Shown here: positions 1,516 through 63,581 of the stretch, one piece after another
Layout of the letters: the number at the start of each line of letters is the position of its first letter
Position numbering within the stretch: the first letter of the stretch is position 1
Origin: Dehalococcoidales bacterium
GTDB lineage: Bacteria > Chloroflexota > Dehalococcoidia > Dehalococcoidales > BS750m-G39
Assembly: GCA_022865485.1 (NCBI GenBank)
Contig: JALHSZ010000006.1
Coordinates: 1,999 to 65,998 of the forward strand
Direction of reading: 5' to 3'
DNA: 64,000 nt
Notes under the pieces: generated by a model
The model's input: the letters and a program-made list of their open reading frames with translations, nothing else
What the model was told of the DNA's origin: nothing
Database searches by the model: none
Made by a program: the position numbers and the translations under genes

Positions 1516-3150
1516 CTAGGGGGAAATGGGCAGGGGTGGTTGCACCCCTTCCCGTAATACTTCTTTGGCGACACCGACGAAGTCGCGGAAGAGGGGATGG
1601 GGGTGGCCCGGTCGGGAGCCGAATTCGGGGTGGAACTGGCAGGCCAGCATCCAGGGGTGGTCGGCTAGCTCGCAGACCTCGACCAGCCGCCCGTCGGGCG
1701 AAAGCCCGCTAAAGACCATGCCCGCCTTCTCCAGCTGTTCGCGGTACTTGTTATTAAACTCGTAGCGGTGACGGTGGCGCTCCTCGACCAGCTCCTGCCC
1801 GTAGGCTTGAGCGGCGAGGCTGCCGTCCAACAGCTGGCAGGGGTAGTTGCCCAGGCGCATGGTGCCCCCCTTGCTCTTCTTGTCCTTCTGGTCGGGGAGG
1901 AGGTCGATGACGGGGTGTCGGGTGTCGGGGTCGAACTCGGTGGAGTTGGCCTCAGCCGAACCCAGAACGAAGCGGGCGAACTCGATAACCATCACCTGCA
2001 TCCCCAGGCAAAGCCCCAGATAGGGGATTTTATTCTCCCGGGCATAGGTGGCGGCTTTTATCATGCCCTCAATACCTCTAATGCCGAAGCCCCCGGGCAC
2101 GACGATGCCCTGAACTGAGCGCAGCGCCGAATAGTTGCCGTTATTTTCCAGCGTCTCCGAGGGCACCCAGCTCAGTTCCAGCTCCCGCCCGTGGTACAGG
2201 GCGGCGTGGTAAAGCGCCTCCCGCACCGAAAAATAGGCGTCCTTCAGCTCCACGTATTTACCCACCAGGGCGATGTTAACCGGCTGGCGGGGGGTCTTGA
2301 TAAGGTTGACCAGCTCCCGCCACTGGCTCAAGTCGGGTGGCTTGGGGTTAATCTTCAGCTTGTCCGTAATCAGTTGCCCCAGCCCCTCCGCCTCCAGCAC
2401 CAGCGGCACCTCGTAAATGGTGGCTACCGTGGTCAGGGGTATAACCGCCTTCTGCTCCACGTCGCAAAAGAGCGATATCTTATTCCTTATCTCCTCCGAG
2501 ATAGGGTGGTCGCTGCGGCAGACGATAATATCGGGCTGGATACCGATGCGCCGCAGCTCGTTGACGCTGTGCTGGGTGGGCTTGGTCTTAATCTCCTGGG
2601 TGGAATTAAGATAGGGCAGCAGGGTAACGTGAACGTAGAGAATATTATCCCGCCCCACCTCGTTGCGCATCTGCCGGATAGCCTCCAGGAAGGGCTGCCC
2701 CTCGATATCGCCCACCGTACCCCCCACCTCGATAATCACCACATCGGCTTTCGATTTCTCGGCCAGCCGCTTAAAGCGCTCCTTAATCTCCGAGGTAACG
2801 TGGGGCACCACCTGTATCGTCCCCCCCAGGAAGTCCCCCCGCCTCTCCTTGGCGATAACGTGGCTGTAGATTTGCCCCGAGGTCACGCTGGAATCGGCGG
2901 TCATGTTGACGTCGATAAAGCGCTCGTAGTTGCCCAGGTCGAGGTCAGTCTCGGCTCCGTCCTGGGTAACGAAGACCTCGCCGTGCTGGTAGGGCGACAT
3001 CGTCCCCGGGTCGACGTTGAGGTAGGGGTCCAGCTTCTGCGCCGTCACCGTAATCTGGCGACTCTTGAGGATGGTGCCGATGGAAGCGACGGTGATGCCT
3101 TTTCCAACGGAACTAACTACGCCACCAGTAACAAAAATATACTTTGACAT
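1516..3150 (-). CDS. pyrG: CTP synthase
   Basis: [49 protein letters not shown]. Confidence 0.99.
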
Positions 3151-3301
3151 CTGGGGAACCGAACTCTAAGAACTCAATAAAAGCAGCCTTGGCATTAGAG
3201 TGGGGGTTTCTTAATATTATAAAGACGTAAGCACACCTTGTCAATAGGCTGAAATGCCCAGTTTGTCTTGGCGGGCAGGGCGGTGCTATTATGGTAGAGC
3301 T

Positions 3302-3868
3302 GTGAAACAAAAGCTCCGGGAAGCCTTTGCCCGCCGCCAGAAGCAAACCATCACCGCCCCCGGGCGCATAGCCTCGGCGGTGCTGTTGCCCATATATTAT
3401 AAAGAAGGGCAGTGCCATATCCTCTTCACCCGCCGCACCGAAAAGGTCAAGGAACACAAAGGGCAAATCTCCTTCCCCGGCGGCGCCCGCCAGGACGGCG
3501 AAAGCCTGCTCGATGCCGCCCTGCGCGAGGCGGCGGAAGAGATAAGCCTCTCCCCCGCCGACGTCGAGGTGCTGGGCGAGCTGGACGACACGGTGACGGT
3601 GGTCTCCAACTATATCGTCACCCCCTTCGTCGGCGTTATCCCCTGGCCCCATAACCTCAAGGCCGACGGCTGGGAAACCGACGAGCTCATCGAGGCGCCC
3701 ATTGCCACGCTGCTGGACAAAAACTCGCGGGAAGATAAGGACGAGGTCATCGAGGGCAAACCGGTCACCTCGTACTTTTACCACTACGGGGGCAGGGTCA
3801 TCTGGGGAGCCACCGCCCGCATCCTCTACCAGTTCCTGGAGCTATACGCCCGGGCCATAAAGAGCTAG
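3302..3868 (+). CDS. Nudix hydrolase, CoA pyrophosphatase (NudL-like)
   Basis: HKGQISFPGG...ALREAAEE Nudix box and IWGATA; likely GTG start at 3302. Confidence 0.9.
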   Translation: MKQKLREAFARRQKQTITAPGRIASAVLLPIYYKEGQCHILFTRRTEKVKEHKGQISFPGGARQDGESLLDAALREAAEEISLSPADVEVLGELDDTVTVVSNYIVTPFVGVIPWPHNLKADGWETDELIEAPIATLLDKNSREDKDEVIEGKPVTSYFYHYGGRVIWGATARILYQFLELYARAIKS

Positions 3869-3921
3869 GCAACCACTCCTTGTCAACCTTAGAAAATTTT
3901 GTTAACTTTCCTCTTAAATTA

Positions 3922-3950
3922 TTGACAAAATCCCTATTATCGTTTATAAT
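3922..3950 (+). promoter_or_regulatory. Consensus sigma70 promoter of the cbpA-hspR-clp operon
   Basis: TTGACA-17 nt-TATAAT exact match. Confidence 0.85.
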
Positions 3951-3974
3951 AGTCCCTACCTGGAGAGAGTTAAA

Positions 3975-4874
3975 ATGGCCGGCAAGAACTACTACAATAT
4001 ATTAGGGGTTAACCGCAGTGCCACCGAGCGCGAGATAAAACAGGCTTACCGCAAGCTGGCGCGCCAGCACCACCCCGACGTCAACCCCGGCGACAAGTCG
4101 GCTGAGGAAAAGTTCAAGCAGATAAACGAGGCTTACGAAGTCCTCTCCGACGAGAAAAAGCGCCGGAAATACGATAAGTACGGCGACCAGTGGCAGCACG
4201 CCGACCAGTTCGAACAACAGGCGCGGCAGCAGCCGGGCTGGAACTTTCAGCGGGGTGGTGGTGGCAGGGTCTATTTCAACGAGGAAGAAGCCGGCAGCAT
4301 CTTCGACGACCTCTTCCGCGGTTTCGGCGGCAGGGCGGGGGGACGCCCCCAGCCGAGGAAAGGCCGCGACCTCGAGTTCCCGCTGGAGGTGACCCTGGAA
4401 GAAGCCTACAGCGGCACCACCCGCACCCTGAGCATGGCTGACGGCAAGCGCCTCGAGGTCAAGATTCCCCCCGGGGTCAAGGACGGCTCCCGCGTCCGCA
4501 TCAGCGGCAAAGGCGGAGAGGGCCACGGCGGGGTCAAGGGCGACCTCTACCTGGTGACCTCGGTCAAGCCCCACCGCCTCTTCCACCGGCACGGCGACGA
4601 CCTCCATGTCGATGTGTCCGTGCCCCTGGTGGTGGCGATGCTGGGCGGCGAGGTCAAGCTAACCACCCCCAAAGGCAAGCTGTCGTTAAAGATTCCCCCC
4701 GAGACCCAGAACGGGCGCACCTTTCGCCTGGCGGGGCAGGGCATGCCCCATCTGGGCGATTCGTCGCGGGGCGACCTGCTGGCCCTGGTCAAGGTGGTGC
4801 TGCCCACCAAACTGACCGACGAGGAAAAGGAGCTCTTCCGGAAGCTCGGCCGGCTCCGCCCCGGTAAGGGTTAA
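3975..4874 (+). CDS. cbpA: DnaJ-class co-chaperone without Zn finger (CbpA-like)
   Basis: J domain with HPD, C-terminal DnaJ domain, no CxxCxGxG repeats. Confidence 0.9.
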
Positions 4875-4886
4875 GGAAGGCTAACG

Positions 4887-5210
4887 ATGAGGATGAAAGA
4901 TTCAGCTGAAAACGAGCCCCGCTACGTGATAAGCATTGCCGCCCGCATGGTCGGCGTGCAGACCCACACCCTGCGCTACTACGAAAAGGTCGGCATCGTC
5001 GAGCCTTCCCGCTCGCGGGGCAACATCCGCTTATACTCGGAGAGAGATATCGCCCACCTCAGGCGGGTCAAGACCCTCATGGACGATATGGGGGTCAACC
5101 TGGCCGGGGTGGAGGTTATAATGCGCATGGTGCAGCAGATGCTAGAGATGCAAAACCAGTTGCAGGAGCTGGAGTCGGAGCTCCACAGATTCGAAGAGCC
5201 CGGGCCGTAG
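4887..5210 (+). CDS. hspR: MerR-family heat-shock repressor, HspR-like
   Basis: YVISIAARMVGVQTHTLRYYE...RLYS...GVNLAGV; lies between cbpA and clp. Confidence 0.85.
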   Translation: MRMKDSAENEPRYVISIAARMVGVQTHTLRYYEKVGIVEPSRSRGNIRLYSERDIAHLRRVKTLMDDMGVNLAGVEVIMRMVQQMLEMQNQLQELESELHRFEEPGP

Positions 5211-26358: not shown

Positions 26359-26495
26359 CCCCCACCCCCCAATTTTATCTATTCCCGCCCGCCGCCCTTT
26401 TAAGGTAAAGAGGGGGCAAAGCCCCCTCTTAAACACCACCAAATAAGGAGTCGAAAAGGGGTCTAACCCCGATTGGGTGGGTAGGGTGGGAAAAC
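26359..26495 (+). repeat. Family-B composite repeat with hairpins and G4 motif
   Basis: First half nearly identical to 63763-63836; second half matches the reverse complement of 63655-63707; ends GGGTGGGTAGGGTGGG. Confidence 0.85.
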
Positions 26496-53556: not shown

Positions 53557-53578
53557 CGGCATCTCCTCGTCTTGCTTC

Positions 53579-53750
53579 ACATAACGGCAAGACCAAAACA
53601 AATAAACTTTACCCCGAATCCGTGCCTATATTACATAACGGAGCGAGCAAAACAAATCAAAACAATTCCCCTTTTTCCCGAATTCCTGCCTGATTTAACA
53701 TAACTCGAAAAACAAACAATTAAAGCTGTCAGGCGTGAATTGTTTTCCCC
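53579..53750 (-). repeat. ~180-bp AT-rich element, copy 1 (family C)
   Basis: Reverse-complement homolog of 58687-58870; three ACATAAC boxes. Confidence 0.88.
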
Positions 53751-53774
53751 AAACAAAACGCCTTTTTGTCGCCC

Positions 53775-57795: not shown

Positions 57796-58674
57796 ATGGC
57801 GGAACGATTTTATTACGGAGGTCAGGCGGTTATTGAGGGGGTGATGATGCGGGGGCGGAAGGCGATGGTGACCGCCGTGCGTCGTCCCAATGGCGAGCTG
57901 GCTATGGATAGCCAGCCGCTGGGGGGTATCTATTCGGGCTGGATGAGAAGAACCCCGCTGCTCCGGGGCATCATCGTTTTGATTGAGGTCATGGTGCTGG
58001 GGATGAAGACGCTGCTCTATTCAGCTAATGTCTCTCTGGAGGAGGAAAAGGCGGAGATCTCGGGGTGGCTGGTCTGGCTGCTGGTAGGTGTTTCCCTGGC
58101 GGTGGCCGTTGTCCTCTTCTTTATGGCGCCTCTTTTCCTGACCAAGTTGCTGGGCTCTTATATCACTTCGTCAGTGGTGTTCAGCCTGGTAGAGGGCTTA
58201 ATACGGGTGGCTATTATTATTGTCTACCTGTGGGCGATTGGGCTGATGCCTGATATTAAGCGGTATTTCGCCTATCACGGCGCTGAGCATAAGACGGTTA
58301 ATGCCTATGAGGGTGGGGTGCCGCTGGAGGTGGAGGCCGTTAAGAAGTATAGTACGGCCCACGTCCGCTGCGGTACCAGTTTCCTCTTTACCGTGGTCAT
58401 CATAGCTATCATTGTCTTTGCCCTGGTGGGGCTGCCGGCGACGTGGATGCTGGTGCTATCCAGGATAGTGCTGCTGCCGGTGATTGCCGCCTTCGCCTAT
58501 GAGGTCATCTACCTCAGCGGCAGGCATGCCGATAACGTCTTCGTGAGGGTGCTGATGGCACCGGGGCGGTGGCTGCAGAGGCTGACCACGAGGGAGCCTG
58601 ACGACGGCCAGCTCGAGGTGGCTATATCGGCGCTCAAGAGGGCAGTGGAGTTGGACGAGGCGAAGGCGACATAA
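57796..58674 (+). CDS. DUF1385 (YqhQ-like) membrane protein
   Basis: GGQAVIEGVMMR, YHGAEHK, RCGTSF, LQ.LTTREP. Confidence 0.9.
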   Translation: MAERFYYGGQAVIEGVMMRGRKAMVTAVRRPNGELAMDSQPLGGIYSGWMRRTPLLRGIIVLIEVMVLGMKTLLYSANVSLEEEKAEISGWLVWLLVGVSLAVAVVLFFMAPLFLTKLLGSYITSSVVFSLVEGLIRVAIIIVYLWAIGLMPDIKRYFAYHGAEHKTVNAYEGGVPLEVEAVKKYSTAHVRCGTSFLFTVVIIAIIVFALVGLPATWMLVLSRIVLLPVIAAFAYEVIYLSGRHADNVFVRVLMAPGRWLQRLTTREPDDGQLEVAISALKRAVELDEAKAT

Positions 58675-58686
58675 GCCTCTTTTTCG

Positions 58687-58870
58687 GGGGAAAACAATTC
58701 ACGGGTGGATGGCTTTAATTGTTTGTTTCTAGAGTTATGTTAATTCAGGCACGAATTTGGGAGAAAAGGGATTTGTTTTGATTTGTTTTGATTTGTTTTG
58801 CCCTCTCCGTTATGTAAAAATAGGCACGGATTCGGGTTTTGAGTTTATTTGTTTTTCTTCCCCGTTATGT
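58687..58870 (+). repeat. ~180-bp AT-rich element, copy 2 (family C)
   Basis: Inverted homolog of 53579-53750 with one extra ATTTGTTTTG unit. Confidence 0.88.
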
Positions 58871-59208
58871 TAATCTTCCACATCTTTCGGGTTTAGCCGC
58901 TGGAAGAAGCAGGTGGGGTTGCCGGTGTGGCAGACGGGGCCGCTGGCTTTGCCCTTGATTAAGATGGTGTCGCTGTCGCAGTCTTTCCAGACCTCGCGGA
59001 CCTTGATGATGCTGCCGGAGGTTTCGCCTTTGTGCCAGAGCTCCTGGCGGCTGCGGCTGTAGAACCAGGCTTCGCCGCTGGTCAGGGTGCGGCGCAGGGC
59101 TTCGGCGTTCATGTAGGCGAGCATGAGGACTTCGCCAGTGTCGGTGTCCTGGGCGATGGCGGGGATGAGGCCGTCTTTGTTGAATCTGATGTCTTTGGTC
59201 AGTTTCAT
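58870..59208 (-). CDS. hisI: Phosphoribosyl-AMP cyclohydrolase
   Basis: VLMLAYMN, SRSR..LW.KGETSG, DCD.D, CHTG...CF. Confidence 0.96.
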   Translation of the reverse strand: MKLTKDIRFNKDGLIPAIAQDTDTGEVLMLAYMNAEALRRTLTSGEAWFYSRSRQELWHKGETSGSIIKVREVWKDCDSDTILIKGKASGPVCHTGNPTCFFQRLNPKDVED

Positions 59209-59269
59209 TTTTTAGTCCTTCAGGGGAAGGATTGCCTAATTATATAACATTTTGGGGGGTTTTGCTTCC

Positions 59270-59370
59270 ACCCCACGCCCCATCTTGGATAGCAAAGGTA
59301 TTTTTGTCCCACCCGCCCACCCACAAGCGTTTTTTAAAAGGGGGCGATGCCCCCTCTTAGGCTCCCCTTT
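59270..59370. repeat. Family-B repeat with G4 motif and hairpin
   Basis: GATAGC...TGTCCCACC module shared with 63735-63765; GGGGGCGATGCCCCC hairpin. Confidence 0.65.
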
Positions 59371-59489
59371 TATCTAGTAGGGTGGCGACATGGCATTATA
59401 TTGGCTGTGGGCGTTTTGTGTTATTGTAGTCTTACGGTTGCGTTTAGTCCATAGATTGCACAATTCGGTAGTGGGTCAATTTGAAATCA

Positions 59490-59518
59490 TTGACAAGGCT
59501 GGTTGCAAGGATTATTAT
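59490..59518 (+). promoter_or_regulatory. Cargo-operon promoter
   Basis: TTGACA-17 nt-TATTAT. Confidence 0.65.
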
Positions 59519-59549
59519 GAAGAAAAGGGATGTATTAAGAGGCTCTCCA

Positions 59550-60197
59550 ATGCTAATGACTGACGATATGATTCGTTCAGCAGTACATGAGGGCAACCTG
59601 CAAATCCACGATTTTGACGATTCCTGCTTACACCCAGCAACATATGATGCCCGTCTCGGTGAAGAAGCCATAACAAGCTCTTTCAGGGAAAAGATAAACC
59701 CCAGTAACAAGGGGCTATTCACGATACCAGCTGGAGACTTTGCCCTTGTAACCACGCATGAGAAATTCAAACTCTCTGCTAGTGTGGCAGGTCATATTGG
59801 TTTACGTTCGCATTATAGCAAAAAGGGGTTGTCTTTATTATCCGGCCCGCAGATAGACCCAGGCTTTAATGGTGTTCTTGTTGTAGGGTTGTCTAATCTA
59901 AGCCCTAGAGATGTCACAATTCCTTACAAAGAGAGATTCTGCACTTTGGAGTTCTATAAACTAGCTGAGCCAGCCAGTGTACTTTATCATGGTGAGTATC
60001 AAAACCAAAAGGGAATCTCTCCACGGGACTTGGAAAATCTTGTAGAGGCTCAGGGGATGACTTTCGGGCAGGTGATAAAGCTATTGGGAGATTTATCACT
60101 TAATGTGAAATCACTATCAGATTCAGTTACATTTCTTAAATGGGCGATTCCAGTAGCCTTTGCTATAATAGCTATATTAATAGCTGTCATTAGATAA
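59550..60197 (+). CDS. dCTP deaminase/dUTPase-fold protein with C-terminal TM helix
   Basis: PATYD.RLG, RS....KG, IDPGF.G, Y.G.YQ.Q.G, then WAIPVAFAIIAILIAVI; probable ATG at 59550. Confidence 0.8.
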   Translation: MLMTDDMIRSAVHEGNLQIHDFDDSCLHPATYDARLGEEAITSSFREKINPSNKGLFTIPAGDFALVTTHEKFKLSASVAGHIGLRSHYSKKGLSLLSGPQIDPGFNGVLVVGLSNLSPRDVTIPYKERFCTLEFYKLAEPASVLYHGEYQNQKGISPRDLENLVEAQGMTFGQVIKLLGDLSLNVKSLSDSVTFLKWAIPVAFAIIAILIAVIR

Positions 60198-60229
60198 TTA
60201 AAGCTAGTCAACAATAATGGAGGGATGGG

Positions 60230-60685
60230 ATGGCAAAATATACTGCTAGGGATGTGGCGGAATACTATCTCTGTTGTTCTACTGATAGGGAATCGGGGGA
60301 TTTAATCTCTAACCTAAAAATTCAAAAACTAGTCTATTATGCTCAGGGTATTCATCTAGCAGCCACAGGTAAGCCACTATTTGATGAGGAGATTGTAGCA
60401 TGGATTCATGGGCCTGTAGTTGAGAGTTTATACCACCAATATAAGCATAATGAAGATGGCCCAATTGAGCCTACACCAAACTATGATTTGCCGAAGTTTG
60501 ATAAAGATACCAAACAACTCTTAGATGAAGTATATCGTGTTATAGGTCAATATTCTGCTTGGAAGCTCAGGGAAATGACACACAATGAGACTCCTTGGAT
60601 GAGAGCGTATAGAAATGGCCCTGGCTCAGTCATTGCACATGCAGATATGGCTGAATATTTCAAACCTTTTGTTAAGGTTAATTAG
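60230..60685 (+). CDS. Panacea (DUF4065/SocA/GepA) domain antitoxin
   Basis: SNLKIQKLVYYAQG, LF...I.AW.HGPV, L..MTH.E.PW. Confidence 0.88.
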   Translation: MAKYTARDVAEYYLCCSTDRESGDLISNLKIQKLVYYAQGIHLAATGKPLFDEEIVAWIHGPVVESLYHQYKHNEDGPIEPTPNYDLPKFDKDTKQLLDEVYRVIGQYSAWKLREMTHNETPWMRAYRNGPGSVIAHADMAEYFKPFVKVN

Positions 60686-60687
60686 TC

Positions 60688-61113
60688 TTGCCTAAAAAAC
60701 GCACAACTTATGTTACTTCACCTGCCCAACCCACAACTAGCACCAGCATAAATATTCCTGAAAGGGTATCTACCCCATTTACACAGCAGCCCATAACTTT
60801 CAGTATTGAATGTTGTGATGGAAAGTGGTGCTTCAATAAAATAAAAGAACTGCGAGAAAAGGCTAATCTTGCTGCCAGATTACATGAATTGAGCCAATTG
60901 GCTTGGGGCGATAGTAAACAAACTAGTAGACAATCGCTTGGTTATGAGACTTTAGACCATATTAAAGTAACTAGTAAGAAATTACCAGCGGGGGCTAGAA
61001 AAATAGGATTTGTTTACCATAATAATCATCGGATGATAGGTTATCGAGATGTGCAAGGCATTTTTCACATTCTTTGGTTTGATTACAATGGGAAGTTATA
61101 CAAACACAACTAG
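60688..61113 (+). CDS. Putative RelE-like toxin partnered with Panacea
   Basis: Starts 2 nt after the antitoxin; C-terminal R..GY....F.ILW.D....LY.H pattern. Confidence 0.6.
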   Translation: MPKKRTTYVTSPAQPTTSTSINIPERVSTPFTQQPITFSIECCDGKWCFNKIKELREKANLAARLHELSQLAWGDSKQTSRQSLGYETLDHIKVTSKKLPAGARKIGFVYHNNHRMIGYRDVQGIFHILWFDYNGKLYKHN

Positions 61114-61115
61114 TC

Positions 61116-61223
61116 TTAAGGGGCGAGTTCTAAAATGTTTTCAATAGTCCAAATCCGGCTTGCAATCCCCGCTGCCATTGCTGGCGTTCTCGGATATGGA
61201 TTAGCCAGTGTCTTATGTGGCCT
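61116..61223 (-). pseudogene. C-terminal remnant of an IS1-like DDE transposase
   Basis: RPHKTLANPYPRTPAMAAGIASRIWTIENILELAP*, the H..L...TPAMAAG...W tail motif. Confidence 0.7.
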
Positions 61224-61285
61224 GTCCCATTAAGATATTGCATATCCCTTTAAACTACCCCTTTGAACAGGTCAGCATTTAAGTT

Positions 61286-61999
61286 TTAGCTGATGATGTC
61301 AAGCGCCTTCTTCAGGTCAATATCTCCCGTATAGAGGGCGGTGCCGACAATAGCGCCTTCGGCGCCGAGGGCTTTGAGCATCTTGAGGTGGTTTAGAGAG
61401 GAGATACCGCCGGCGGCGATGACGGGCTTTCGGATGGTATCGATAAGCTCGGCGGTGGCGGCGAAGTTGGGCTCGGTGAGGGTGCCGTCGCGGCTGATAT
61501 CGGTATAGATGAAGCGCTTTACTCCCAGCGGGGTCATTGAGCGCGCCAGGGTTACCGCCCTGATTTCGGTGGGCTGGCGCCAGCCGTGGGTGGCGACAAA
61601 GCCATCGCGGGCGTCGATGCCGACGATGATGGTATCGCGGTAGCGCTTACAGGCCTCTTTGACCAGTTCGGGGTCTTCCACGGCGGCGGTGCCTAAGATT
61701 ATGCGCTCGACGCCGGCCTTGAGCAGCTTGTGTATGGTCTCGATGTCGCGGATGCCGCCGCCGAGTTGCGTTGGAATCAATAAGACGCGGGCGATGTCGG
61801 TGACTATCTCGATGTTGCGTACGCTGCCCTCGGCGGCGCCGTCGAGGTCAACGATGTGGAGGCGGGGTGCCCCCAGCGACTGCCACTGCAGGGCGGCCTC
61901 TACCGGGTCTTCGGAGAATACCGTTTCGCGCTCATAGTCGCCCTGGTAGAGGCGGACACACCTGCCGCCGCGGATATCTATGGCCGGGATGATTTCCGT
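61286..61999 (-). CDS. hisA: ProFAR isomerase, apparent ACG start
   Basis: Frame is open upstream of the track ORF: EIIPAIDIRGGRCVRLYQGDY...HIVDLDGA...GGGIR...TDI.RDG. Confidence 0.95.
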   Translation of the reverse strand, partial: TEIIPAIDIRGGRCVRLYQGDYERETVFSEDPVEAALQWQSLGAPRLHIVDLDGAAEGSVRNIEIVTDIARVLLIPTQLGGGIRDIETIHKLLKAGVERIILGTAAVEDPELVKEACKRYRDTIIVGIDARDGFVATHGWRQPTEIRAVTLARSMTPLGVKRFIYTDISRDGTLTEPNFAATAELIDTIRKPVIAAGGISSLNHLKMLKALGAEGAIVGTALYTGDIDLKKALDIIS

Positions 62000-62009
62000 A
62001 GCAACTCAC

Positions 62010-63581
62010 CTACAGGTTGATATTGGAGTACTTTCTCCAGGGTCGGGACAGGAACGCCTTGTTATCCTTATTCTTGTTTTCCAGCATATCCAGCGAGCGG
62101 TTGATGACCTTGCGGGTGTCGCTGGGCATAATGACGTCGTCGATGTAGCCGCGCTCGGCGCCTTTATAGGGGTTTTCGTAGATTTCGCTGTATTCCGCGA
62201 TGCGCTGTGCCGCCGTCTCTTTGGGGTTTGCCGACTGCTTGATTTCCTTGGCGAAGATGACGCTGGCGGCGGTCTCGGCACCGACGATGGTGACCCGTGC
62301 CGTGGGCCAGGCAAAGACGAGGTCGGCGCCGATGCCCTTATCGAGCATGCCGTAGTGGGCGCCCGCGTAGGACTTGCGCAGGATAATGGAGATGAGGGGG
62401 ACGGTGGCATCAGCCCAGGCAAAGAGCAGCTTGGCGCCGTGGCGCAGTATGCCTTTCCAATCCTGCTCGGAGCCGATCATATAGCCGGGGCAGTCGCCCA
62501 GGGTGACGACGGGGATGTTGAAGAGGTCGCAGAAGCGGGCGAAGCGTGCCCCTTTGTCGGCGGCGTCGCAGTCGATGGTGCCCGCCGCCCACATGGGCTG
62601 GTTGGACCAGATGCCCACCGGCCGGCCGTTGAAGCGGGCGAAACCGGTGATAACGCTCTTGGCGTGGTCCTTTAATATCTCGTAGAAATAGCCGTCGTCG
62701 ACGATGGCGCGGATTACCTTGTACATGTCGTAGGGCTGGGTGGGTTTGTCGGGGATGATGCTGTCGAGCTCGGGACAGAGCCGCTCGGGGTCGTCGCTGG
62801 TGGGGAGGCGGGGCGGCATATCGCTGTTGTTCGAGGGGAAGAGCGCCAGGAGTTCCTTGGTCTTGTCCAGGGCGTCTTTGTCATCATTAGCCACGATGTG
62901 GGTCTGGCCGGACTTGACGGCGTGCGCCTTCCAGCCGGAGAGCTCCTCCAGCGAGATTTCCTCGCCGAGCTGGGTCTTGACGAAGGCGGGGCCGGCAATG
63001 CCCATGAAGCCGGTGTCCCGGCACTGGATGATGAAGTCCTGCATGATGGGGTGGTAGGCCTGTCCGCCCAGGCAGGGGCCCATGAGCACGGCTATCTGGG
63101 GGATGATGCCGGAAGCCCGTATCTGGGCTTTGAAGAGGTTGCCGTACATTTCCAGCGTATCCATGCCCTCCTGGAGGCGGGCGCCGCCGGAATCATTCAA
63201 GCCGACCAGCGGCCAGCCCATCTCCTTGGCGAAGTCAATAGCCCGGATTTCTTTTATGCCGTGATACTCGCCGAAGGTGCCGGCCATAGCCATGAAGTCC
63301 TCGGCGAAGGCGACCACGGGACGGCCGTTGACCAGGCCGTAGCCGGTGACTACTCCTTCCGCGGGGACTTCCGCCTTGTCCATGCCGAAGTGGGTGGTTC
63401 TATGCTTGACGAATATGCCTAGCTCGTTGAAGGTGCCGGGGTCGAAGAGGTAGTCGATTCTTTCTCGTGCCGTCCACTGGCCTTTACTGTGGCGCTTCTC
63501 TATGGCTTCGGGGGAAGCCATCTGTTCGATCTTGGCTCTTTTCCGTTTATATTCCTCAATGAGCTCTTCGGTTGATGCCAT
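62010..63581 (-). CDS. Second acyl-CoA carboxyltransferase (PccB/MmdA type)
   Basis: TARERI, DSGGARLQEG, RFCD.FNIP, RKSY.GA. Confidence 0.92.
   Translation of the reverse strand: MASTEELIEEYKRKRAKIEQMASPEAIEKRHSKGQWTARERIDYLFDPGTFNELGIFVKHRTTHFGMDKAEVPAEGVVTGYGLVNGRPVVAFAEDFMAMAGTFGEYHGIKEIRAIDFAKEMGWPLVGLNDSGGARLQEGMDTLEMYGNLFKAQIRASGIIPQIAVLMGPCLGGQAYHPIMQDFIIQCRDTGFMGIAGPAFVKTQLGEEISLEELSGWKAHAVKSGQTHIVANDDKDALDKTKELLALFPSNNSDMPPRLPTSDDPERLCPELDSIIPDKPTQPYDMYKVIRAIVDDGYFYEILKDHAKSVITGFARFNGRPVGIWSNQPMWAAGTIDCDAADKGARFARFCDLFNIPVVTLGDCPGYMIGSEQDWKGILRHGAKLLFAWADATVPLISIILRKSYAGAHYGMLDKGIGADLVFAWPTARVTIVGAETAASVIFAKEIKQSANPKETAAQRIAEYSEIYENPYKGAERGYIDDVIMPSDTRKVINRSLDMLENKNKDNKAFLSRPWRKYSNINL

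Follow-up and report, generated by a model that had tools for sequence, protein, structure and literature searches.

Introduction

The described systems closest to the locus studied here, a three-gene cargo between hisI and hisA in the genome of a Dehalococcoidales bacterium, are toxin–antitoxin (TA) pairs built on the Panacea domain and proteins of the dCTP deaminase (Dcd)/dUTPase fold. The available portions of Kurata et al. (2022, PMC8832971) describe PanAT loci as bicistrons that carry the gene for the antitoxin PanA first, the common order, together with one of dozens of unrelated toxins; those of Ernits et al. (2023, PMC10440598) report that a stand-alone Panacea protein can neutralise a toxin directly. 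Among proteins of the Dcd fold, the archaeal Dcd-type dUTPases are soluble enzymes of ~155 amino acids (aa). Nucleotide-depletion defences (dCTP deaminase, dGTPase; AvcD/DcdV) also draw on nucleotide-pool enzymes. To our knowledge, the defensive deaminases known so far have the zinc cytidine-deaminase fold and not the trimeric Dcd fold.

The cargo occupies ~1.8 kb (59488 to ~61280) of a 64,000-nucleotide stretch that we call the window (NCBI GenBank assembly GCA_022865485.1, contig JALHSZ010000006.1, positions 1,999 to 65,998 of the forward strand). The source genome comprises 1.19 Mb in 52 contigs and is 88% complete. The cargo is a foreign insert of low guanine-plus-cytosine (GC) content, with three open reading frames (ORFs) on the + strand, antisense to the flanking hisI and hisA, both of which lie on the minus strand. 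It is rather likely a composite of two accessory modules that move independently, one a PanA–PanT pair and the other a solitary membrane-tethered dUTPase-like gene; the two would have come together in a hotspot for variable cargo between hisI and hisA. Its parts are as follows.

59550-60197, + strand: gene 1, a 215-aa dUTPase-like protein of the Dcd type with a tail anchor (translation might also start at 59517 or 59481)
60179-60218, no strand: mosaic joint between the gene-1 segment and the PanA–gene-3 cassette, placed by homology breakpoints
60230-60685, + strand: gene 2, stand-alone Panacea-domain protein (PF13274; PanA-type antitoxin), 151 aa
60688-61113, + strand: gene 3, candidate PanT toxin, 141 aa, with a TTG start 2 nt past the gene-2 stop
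61114-61223, + strand: conserved 3′ end of the PanA/gene-3 cassette, which L046, L050 and L051 match at the nucleotide level as far as 61220-61223

Gene 1 and the PanA/gene-3 pair are most likely independent modules

Gene 1 has at least 259 full-length homologs of 215-240 aa, and a motif scan of one genome per species gave 43 loci with gene-1 relatives. Relatives of gene 2 or gene 3 were found near none of the 43 (tblastn, E ≤ 1e-2, flanks up to 5 kb). Gene-1 relatives were likewise found at 0/13 metagenome gene-3 loci, and an intact gene 1 stood beside none of the 20 PanA/gene-3 pairs examined. An earlier note, made from the window sequence, had expected homologs of gene 1 to co-occur with Panacea (DUF4065) and defence islands; with Panacea at 0/43 loci and neighbours that are mostly housekeeping genes, this expectation failed.

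The same division is seen in the DNA itself. Nucleotide homology to a gene-1 locus (L001) covers 59533-60178 only, and homology to other PanA/gene-3 cassettes starts at 60205-60241 and ends at ~61123, or as far as 61223 in three of them. Because the two homologies stop and start there, the two parts of the cargo meet at 60179-60218. Gene 1 and the PanA/gene-3 pair are thus most likely independent modules. The zero counts (0/43 and 0/13), the joint and a PADLOC collection with no model for these genes leave the view of the earlier note that all three form one conserved module mostly without support. Its suggestion that gene 1 acts as trigger of the TA pair loses ground on the same counts and breakpoints, and is kept alive by a single viral contig, L078, which is discussed below.

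In contigs of four other metagenome runs (80% likeness), only pieces of up to ~200 bases fell on the island, and the bridge from gene 1 to gene 2 was absent. One X3 contig joins 59265 to 61282 through 134 other letters and looks like the empty site of a relative. Of the sequencing runs listed, the probable source sample alone contained most of the stretch, and no RNA run was among those containing it.

Genes 2 and 3 resemble a PanAT locus

A Panacea gene lies directly upstream of the gene-3 relative, on the same strand, at all 20 examined loci that have upstream DNA. These are 11/11 metagenome loci (of the 13 found, two start within the gene; the 11 include L048/L049 and L053/L054, two pairs that seem to be duplicates), 3/3 phage records inspected out of 12 that matched (Salmonella phage Emek, Pseudomonas phage CF60a and E. 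coli phage EC.P3), 5/5 matches among 400 sampled genomes of the phylum, where the gap ranges from -23 to +27 nt, and L078. The phage homologs of gene 3 score 164-178 bits against the family hidden Markov model (HMM).

Gene 2 is a SocA_Panacea protein (PF13274, 81.2 bits against a cut-off of 25.7, 1.4e-22), as the earlier note had recognised, and matches phrog_1281 at 1.1e-47. It falls below the SocA (type VI) antitoxin equivalog NF047745, with 64 bits against a cut-off of 190. By synteny, genes 2 and 3 form a putative PanAT-like locus as defined in the published work.

Gene 3 belongs to a large family that has no Pfam model. It matches phrog_8366 end to end (4.5e-17) and, below the cut-off, NF046006 'MAG6450 family', a model that 72/137 gene-3 relatives match. 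In the available parts of two papers (PMC3179502, PMC4251992), MAG6450 figures only as a conserved hypothetical protein whose gene can take up a transposon. With a profile of 19 close gene-3 homologs, 905 representative clusters were retrieved at E ≤ 1e-3, most of them 130-146 aa long; at E ≤ 1e-10 there were 416. Pfam returned no relevant family for gene 3 and its 137 relatives, only two unrelated single-member matches (Rop and PLA2G12), and a search of the PDB sequences with the gene-3 family profile gave 0 matches. Across the 137 relatives, E87 is invariant and W73, G85, G118, Y138 and H140 are nearly so.

The AlphaFold model of gene 3 has a predicted local distance difference test (pLDDT) score of 65.4. 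Its best Foldseek match is aRelE (1wmi_A; E 0.048, probability 0.95, template-modelling (TM) score 0.57 by target), and the RelE, HigB and YoeB toxins recur among the matches, all weak. Searched with its own model, the ESM Atlas returned rows from RelE/StbE and ParE_toxin clusters (TM score 0.49-0.51 by query, 0.68-0.73 by row). The RelE-like toxin proposed in the earlier note thus survives as a set of weak fold matches to RelE, HigB and YoeB; its counterpart at the level of sequence families was not found. We treat the RelE/HigB/YoeB-like fold as a weak lead from modelling. A predicted complex of PanA with gene 3 gave a median of 0.24 against a mark of 0.32 and was used neither way.

On this basis the stand-alone PanA (gene 2) and its coupled partner (gene 3) would make up a type II TA pair, with gene 2 presumably coupled to gene 3 in translation. 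Gene 3 would probably be an RNase of the RelE/YoeB kind within the RelE/ParE superfamily, arresting translation through RNA cutting, and gene 2 would neutralise it by direct binding. The pair might instead be an accessory module of phages or mobile elements with no TA function, for example a regulator or an anti-defence factor. Relatives in moron-like positions of temperate phages would suit such a role, as would a gene 3 with no Pfam or PDB sequence relative and a weak fold match. We consider it improbable, given a strict PanA-first bicistron at 20/20 loci with gaps of few bases, matching the published PanAT pattern, and RelE, HigB and YoeB toxins as the only recurring fold matches.

The neighbours of two of the metagenome cassettes were judged by eye from translations. 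At L052:2317-4609 the PanA/gene-3 cassette adjoins a DNA methylase-like ORF and a transposase resembling those of insertion sequences (IS), and at L055:2552-4243 it adjoins a DUF262/GmrSD-like ORF.

Gene 1 is a tail-anchored Dcd-type dUTPase-like protein

Gene 1 matches Pfam DCD (PF22769; 62.2 bits, cut-off 27, 7.7e-17) and phrog_1663, and passes TIGR02274 'dCTP deaminase' with 100.9 bits against a cut-off of 92.8. Its AlphaFold model, computed with 27 homologs, has a pLDDT of 88.7 and agrees with the Dcd fold assigned in the earlier note. The protein is divided as follows.

59550-60020, + strand: residues 1-157, Dcd/dUTPase beta-barrel head and C-terminal arm motif (pLDDT mostly >90)
60021-60140, + strand: residues 158-197, conserved helical stalk (…QGMTFGQVIK…), from the family alignment and the AlphaFold model
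60141-60191, + strand: residues 198-214, WAIPVAFAIIAILIAVI, the transmembrane helix at the C-terminus, followed by a single residue

Residues 158-214, stalk and membrane helix together, form a single unbroken helix in the model, and a hydrophobic 17-mer lies within the last 45 residues of 121/121 gene-1 family members. The helical linker and C-terminal membrane helix that the earlier note described are therefore family features. The top Foldseek matches, at 33-34% identity and TM scores (by target) of 0.92-0.94, are two archaeal enzymes, the P45 dUTPase (9ln0/9ln3) and the T. pacificus dUTPase (8y1w). They are followed by bifunctional Dcd:dUTPases, and Dcd entries match at E 1e-13 to 1e-15.

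The column of the catalytic deaminase Glu was defined by alignment with 4xjc, and the same residue is mutated in PDB entries 'E138A/E138D'. It holds Glu in 4xjc ('ITLELFN'), Met in the archaeal dUTPases and Gly in gene 1 ('LVVGLSN'). Among the 121 family members it is Gly in 113, Arg in four, Ala in two, Ser in one and a gap in one, and Glu in none. The motif 'RSSLAR' reads 'RSHYSK' in gene 1, and its Arg column holds Lys in 89 members and Arg in 30. Both replacements, of the deaminase Arg by Lys and of the catalytic Glu by Gly, had been read by eye beforehand and hold in the 4xjc alignment and the family counts. Because the Glu column is Gly in gene 1 and never Glu across the family, gene 1 cannot be classed as a deaminase despite passing TIGR02274.

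Much of the remaining pocket is retained, including the IDPG Asp and the YxGxYQxQxG arm that the earlier note had reported as kept. D103 of the IDPG motif is present in 120/121 members, S87 in 119 and R86 in 117; in the arm, Y146 is found in 120, G148 in 121, Q151 in 120 and Q153 in 119. T132 is present in 121/121 members, and gene 1 reads 'FCTLEF' at this site. The same column holds Gln in 8y1w ('FVQIAF'), in 4xjc ('ICQLVF') and in the genome's own housekeeping Dcd-like gene ('VMQLIF'). Gene 1 is accordingly a dUTPase-like protein of the Dcd type, whose family shares a pocket change of its own together with a conserved stalk and a tail anchor. It is neither a dCTP deaminase nor simply a dead enzyme.

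The idea that gene 1 is an inactive 'pseudo-deaminase' was dropped, as the lack of the Glu is normal in Dcd-type dUTPases and extends to the housekeeping copy. That copy (L044) has 180 aa, is 20% identical to gene 1, has no Glu and ends directly past the arm. When the stalk and anchor of gene 1 were searched against the ESM Atlas, the outcome was no more than a lead at 0.82. No longer proteins fusing the gene-1 head to other domains were found, which is weak evidence.

Gene 1 is a rare and solitary accessory gene

The 43 gene-1 loci span Chloroflexota, Acidobacteriota, Actinomycetota, Methanomicrobiales, Methanocellales, Nitrosotalea, Halobacteriales and Methanoperedenaceae. Clustering of the ORFs within 3.5 kb of them gave transposase-like clusters in five and four loci and a dehydrogenase in three, and no other conserved neighbour family. 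By Pfam, the 146 neighbours (up to two genes per side) include IS1595 transposase four times, MFS three times and P63C and PIN twice each. A search of a plasmid collection with gene 1 matched only an ordinary haloarchaeal dcd.

A canonical Dcd and/or dUTPase is also present in 6/6 genomes checked, the source genome and 5/5 sampled hosts. True family members occur in four of 400 other genomes of the class sampled, and two of these four copies are decayed, one split by an internal deletion and the other truncated. Gene 1 is a solitary, rare, horizontally spread and fast-decaying extra paralog beside the housekeeping enzyme. Because it has these properties, an accessory or conflict gene fits its spread, yet recognisable defence islands are not enriched around it. 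The decayed copies are L088/L095 (G073:C28:649-1200) and L089 (G358:C1:2967750-2968178); one covers query residues 1-94 and 127-211 only, and the other is truncated to 2-129.

The available portions of Kurata et al. (PMC8832971) describe PanTs that depolarise the membrane and have membrane helices at their C-termini, as well as loci in which the toxin gene comes first. Gene 1 could by analogy be a PanT-type toxin encoded ahead of its antitoxin and neutralised by the downstream PanA, which would then guard two toxins. Its relatives have no Panacea neighbour in 43/43 loci, so gene 1 is tolerated without this antitoxin, and we regard a PanT role for gene 1 as highly improbable.

A variant of the family was seen at L033 (3101-6235). 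This 292-aa protein keeps the head, including the Thr, and has a coiled coil and a soluble domain of ~95 residues in place of the membrane anchor. It is flanked by GmrSD_N, DUF763 and PD-(D/E)XK nuclease genes, followed by a 118-aa ORF without a family. Its C-terminal soluble domain has no Pfam match and no PDB sequence match.

The hisI–hisA spacer is a hotspot for variable cargo

The cargo is bordered by the following features.

58870-59208, minus strand: hisI (phosphoribosyl-AMP cyclohydrolase), left flank (Pfam PRA-CH, 4.7e-33)
59275-59487, no strand: genus-specific spacer segment shared with genome G001, the match stopping at 59487
59490-59518, + strand: sigma-70-like TTGACA-17-TATTAT promoter (11/12 positions match), at the cargo's left end
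61286-62005, minus strand: hisA, right flank (Pfam His_biosynth, 3.3e-54), with the frame open to 62005

Genome comparison showed that hisI and hisA are separated by ~85-290 bp in 12 genomes of other genera, by 708 bp in G018 and by ~200 bp in G011, a genome of the same genus with an empty slot. hisI itself is 80-93% identical at the nucleotide level across same-genus genomes. Five other members of the genus hold differing cargo in the slot.

G003: 874-aa HSDR_N + N6_Mtase/Eco57I + TaqI_C protein, a type IIG restriction-methylase, GC 0.39
G004: two ORFs without any family
G005 and G006: 546- and 549-aa GmrSD proteins (PADLOC HEC-06, E 1e-80 or lower), GC 0.40-0.41
G007: PD40 propeller protein

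Within this genus the hisI–hisA spacer is a hotspot whose cargo differs between species. Because the same slot holds restriction genes in sister genomes, the location favours a conflict role for the cargo, by an argument of guilt by location.

The borders of the cargo can be placed closely. Contig C15 of G001 matches window 58501-59487 at 82% and continues into other AT-rich DNA until the contig ends; because it diverges exactly there, the left boundary is set at 59487/59488. The right boundary lies at 61279-61285, at the hisA stop, and homology with relatives resumes at 61279-61287. GC content is 0.37-0.46 over 59400-61199, compared with 0.56-0.57 on the hisI side and 0.62-0.63 on the hisA side. 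The promoter begins two bases inside the left boundary and is the top of 10 promoter-like sites in 59150-61400, where shuffled sequence has a mean of 5.1 sites. GC content, ORFs and promoter scan all agree with the earlier note's picture of an AT-rich three-gene insert, antisense between hisA and hisI, with a TTGACA-17-TATTAT promoter of its own. Since the -10 box ends at 59518, the ATG at 59550 is the likely start of gene 1; a ribosome-binding site, AAGAGG, lies at 59538-59543, and most homologs start MLMTD.

Some features of the flanks were noted in passing. hisA has no in-frame ATG, GTG or TTG before its conserved IIPAIDI motif (61980-62012), and its frame opens right after a TGA that is itself just past the TAG stop of the upstream gene. 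The first canonical in-frame start, TTG 61780, would cost 73 Pfam profile positions, and a non-canonical start codon (e.g. ATC) or coupling to the upstream carboxyltransferase gene is possible. The intergenic stretch downstream of hisI (58600-58873) is repeated on the opposite strand ~5 kb away (53576-53773, 79% identity), and contigs C16 and C52 hold weaker copies of it. The hairpin GGGGGCGATGCCCCC is part of a short dispersed repeat at ~59295-59371 (core ~59330-59371); this repeat has five weaker copies in the same genome (C34, C24, C44, C50 and window 26408-26433) and many in same-genus genomes. The region 59285-59385 folds no better than shuffled sequence (z = -0.52) and has no Rfam match, and an Rfam scan of 58600-61400 gave nothing meaningful.

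Weighing the two-module reading

Several observations weigh against the overall reading or parts of it, and are collected here. Within this genome, genes 1 and 2 are co-oriented with a gap of 32 bp, no + strand terminator is predicted between them, and the sole strong promoter lies upstream of gene 1; genes 1-3 are probably co-transcribed in this genome. The gene neighbourhood also recurs once, on the IMG/VR contig L078, where a remnant of gene 1 is followed by PanA and a gene-3-like gene, so that a PanA pair lies next to gene 1 in two of the three close-clade contexts visible (the window, L001 and L078). The context survey, moreover, covers relatives other than the closest gene-1 homologs, which share 70-86% identity and lie mostly on short metagenome contigs. 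The neighbours of gene-1 relatives, apart from the families named above, are housekeeping enzymes; in a PADLOC scan of the 146 neighbours no family was matched by more than one, and PADLOC-DB v2 gave 0 families at E ≤ 1 for genes 1, 2 and 3. Catalysis by gene 1 might be altered or lost, since an invariant Thr stands where canonical enzymes have Gln. For gene 3, no Foldseek match reached E ≤ 0.001 and the fold rests on a pLDDT-65 model, and its subfamily is without H82 and R109, which are found in 103/137 and 128/137 of the wider family.

The first group of these observations would suit an integrated tripartite system, in which gene 1 would serve as a sensor of the nucleotide pool that sets off or modulates the PanA–toxin pair, or would itself be a second effector under PanA. 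Shared strand, short gap, a single upstream promoter and no predicted intervening terminator all allow it, the gene-1 remnant of L078 is directly followed by PanA and a gene-3-superfamily gene, and the available portions of Kurata et al. (2022, PMC8832971) mention PanAT loci with accessory third genes, including nucleotide-modifying enzymes. On the other hand, PanA or gene 3 is found at 0/43 gene-1 loci and an intact gene 1 at 0/20 pairs, and the homology breakpoints are those of a mosaic.

The details of L078 bear on this point. Its order (1992-5150) is an N6_N4 methylase–Mrr_cat fusion, a zinc-ribbon ORF, the gene-1 remnant, PanA and the gene-3-superfamily gene. The remnant is a 90-aa ORF that keeps ~58 native residues; its first ~60 residues are 70% identical to gene 1, and its DNA matches window 59511-59677 at 76% identity. 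The adjoining pair remains intact; its PanA is 36% identical to gene 2, and the 148-aa partner scores 30.5 bits against the gene-3 family HMM. Because the remnant is 70% identical and the intact pair at most 36%, L078 fits cassette replacement and not co-inheritance. We read it as cassette replacement in a shared landing zone, a reading that also has room for selection keeping both modules together. An integrated tripartite system is, in our judgement, quite unlikely.

The housekeeping neighbours and the lack of PADLOC matches would instead suit a metabolic role, with gene 1 as a membrane-tethered house-cleaning enzyme of the dUTPase/dCTP family that takes no part in conflict and lies beside a TA pair by accident. 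The TIGR02274 cut-off is passed, and the Asp, Ser, Arg and arm residues are conserved. Yet gene 1 is an extra paralog in 6/6 genomes checked, is patchy across phyla and domains, and is present in 4/400 other genomes of the class, with two copies decayed. It is cargo of low GC content, sister genomes have restriction genes at the same place, and the L033 variant exchanges the anchor for a soluble domain beside GmrSD_N, DUF763 and PD-(D/E)XK nuclease genes. We think a purely metabolic role fairly unlikely.

Proposed action of gene 1

Under the two-module reading, gene 1 would act alone. It would be trimeric by homology, with a cytoplasmic Dcd-type dUTPase head, and would bind a pyrimidine dNTP at the subunit interfaces, binding or hydrolysing it at the inner face of the membrane. 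Because the active-site arm is continuous with the stalk and anchor, the protein could be a membrane-localised dNTP pyrophosphatase, or could couple nucleotide binding to the membrane. We infer that gene 1 is most likely an anti-phage or abortive-infection device.

A more specific version, which we consider unlikely, makes gene 1 a one-gene nucleotide-gated membrane switch that causes abortive infection. The trimeric dUTPase-like head would probe the pyrimidine dNTPs of the cell for a mark of infection, for example dUTP or a 5-substituted dNTP made by a phage. The C-terminal arm of this fold shuts over the nucleotide that is bound. Since the arm of gene 1 runs on into the stalk and membrane helix, binding could re-pack the three anchors, leading to depolarisation and abortive infection. 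Replacement of the invariant-site Gln by Thr would adjust the pocket or make hydrolysis slower, and the protein would thereby signal rather than clean; the recurring vicinity of a PanA pair (window and L078) would reflect co-selected suicide modules.

Implications

Annotation pipelines would call gene 1 'dCTP deaminase', as it passes TIGR02274, though its family is without the deaminase Glu. The present analysis instead defines a coherent, widespread and uncharacterised family with a Dcd-type dUTPase head, a stalk, a tail anchor and an invariant Thr as signature. A full-text literature search on the Dcd/dUTPase fold, membranes and defence found no such protein described in the text available to it, and the available portions of the Panacea papers (PMC8832971, PMC10440598) make no mention of a membrane-anchored Dcd/dUTPase fold.

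For the second module, a large family left orphan by the Pfam and PDB sequence searches (905 representative clusters, phrog_8366 among them, overlapping the NCBIfam 'MAG6450 family') is tied to Panacea by strict synteny and is a ready candidate for toxicity–neutralisation work. The hisI–hisA hotspot offers a handle on accessory and defence genes in a small-genome Dehalococcoidia-like genus, where classic islands are hard to see.

Comparison with known systems

Genes 2 and 3 share with PanA–PanT systems, as the available portions of the two Panacea papers describe them (PMC8832971, PMC10440598), a Panacea gene that comes first and a small unrelated partner, here 2 nt downstream. For the gene-3 family this pairing is conserved across distant taxa and phages. 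The partner family has no Pfam model, and it is likened to PanAT on the basis of gene order. Compared with RelE/ParE toxins (1wmi, HigB 5ycl, RelE 3g5o, YoeB 2a6r), gene 3 has a similar predicted topology of strand, helices and four-stranded sheet, but no match to RelE, ParE or HigB at the level of sequence, and all Foldseek E values exceed 0.04. It also has ~35 extra N-terminal residues, which are Cys-rich (ECC…C) in the close subfamily. Its invariant Glu and C-terminal Y-x-H recall the active site of YoeB, which we take to be Glu/His/Tyr.

Gene 1 falls in the same Pfam/NCBIfam family as E. coli Dcd (1xs1), the B. halodurans enzyme (4xjc) and the M. tuberculosis enzyme (2qxx), and differs from the bifunctional Dcd:dUTPase 4xjc in having Gly where that enzyme has the Glu of 'ITLELFN'. 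It is most like the archaeal Dcd-type dUTPases (9ln0/9ln3, 8y1w), with which it shares the beta-barrel, a site without deaminase Glu, the R-S motif, the (I/V)DPG Asp and the Y..G.YQ arm. Those enzymes are about 155 residues long; in gene 1 the head is followed by a conserved stalk of 40 residues and by a membrane helix. In place of their Gln ('FVQIAF') the family of gene 1 has an invariant Thr ('FCTLEF' in gene 1), and gene 1 is a rare accessory paralog beside a separate housekeeping enzyme. With nucleotide-depletion defences gene 1 has in common a nucleotide-pool enzyme fold carried as an accessory gene. None of the defensive deaminases is described as membrane-anchored in the sources available, and no PADLOC model matches gene 1. 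The PanA pair is a putative new member of the known PanAT kind, and the tail-anchored dUTPase-like family is an undescribed variant.

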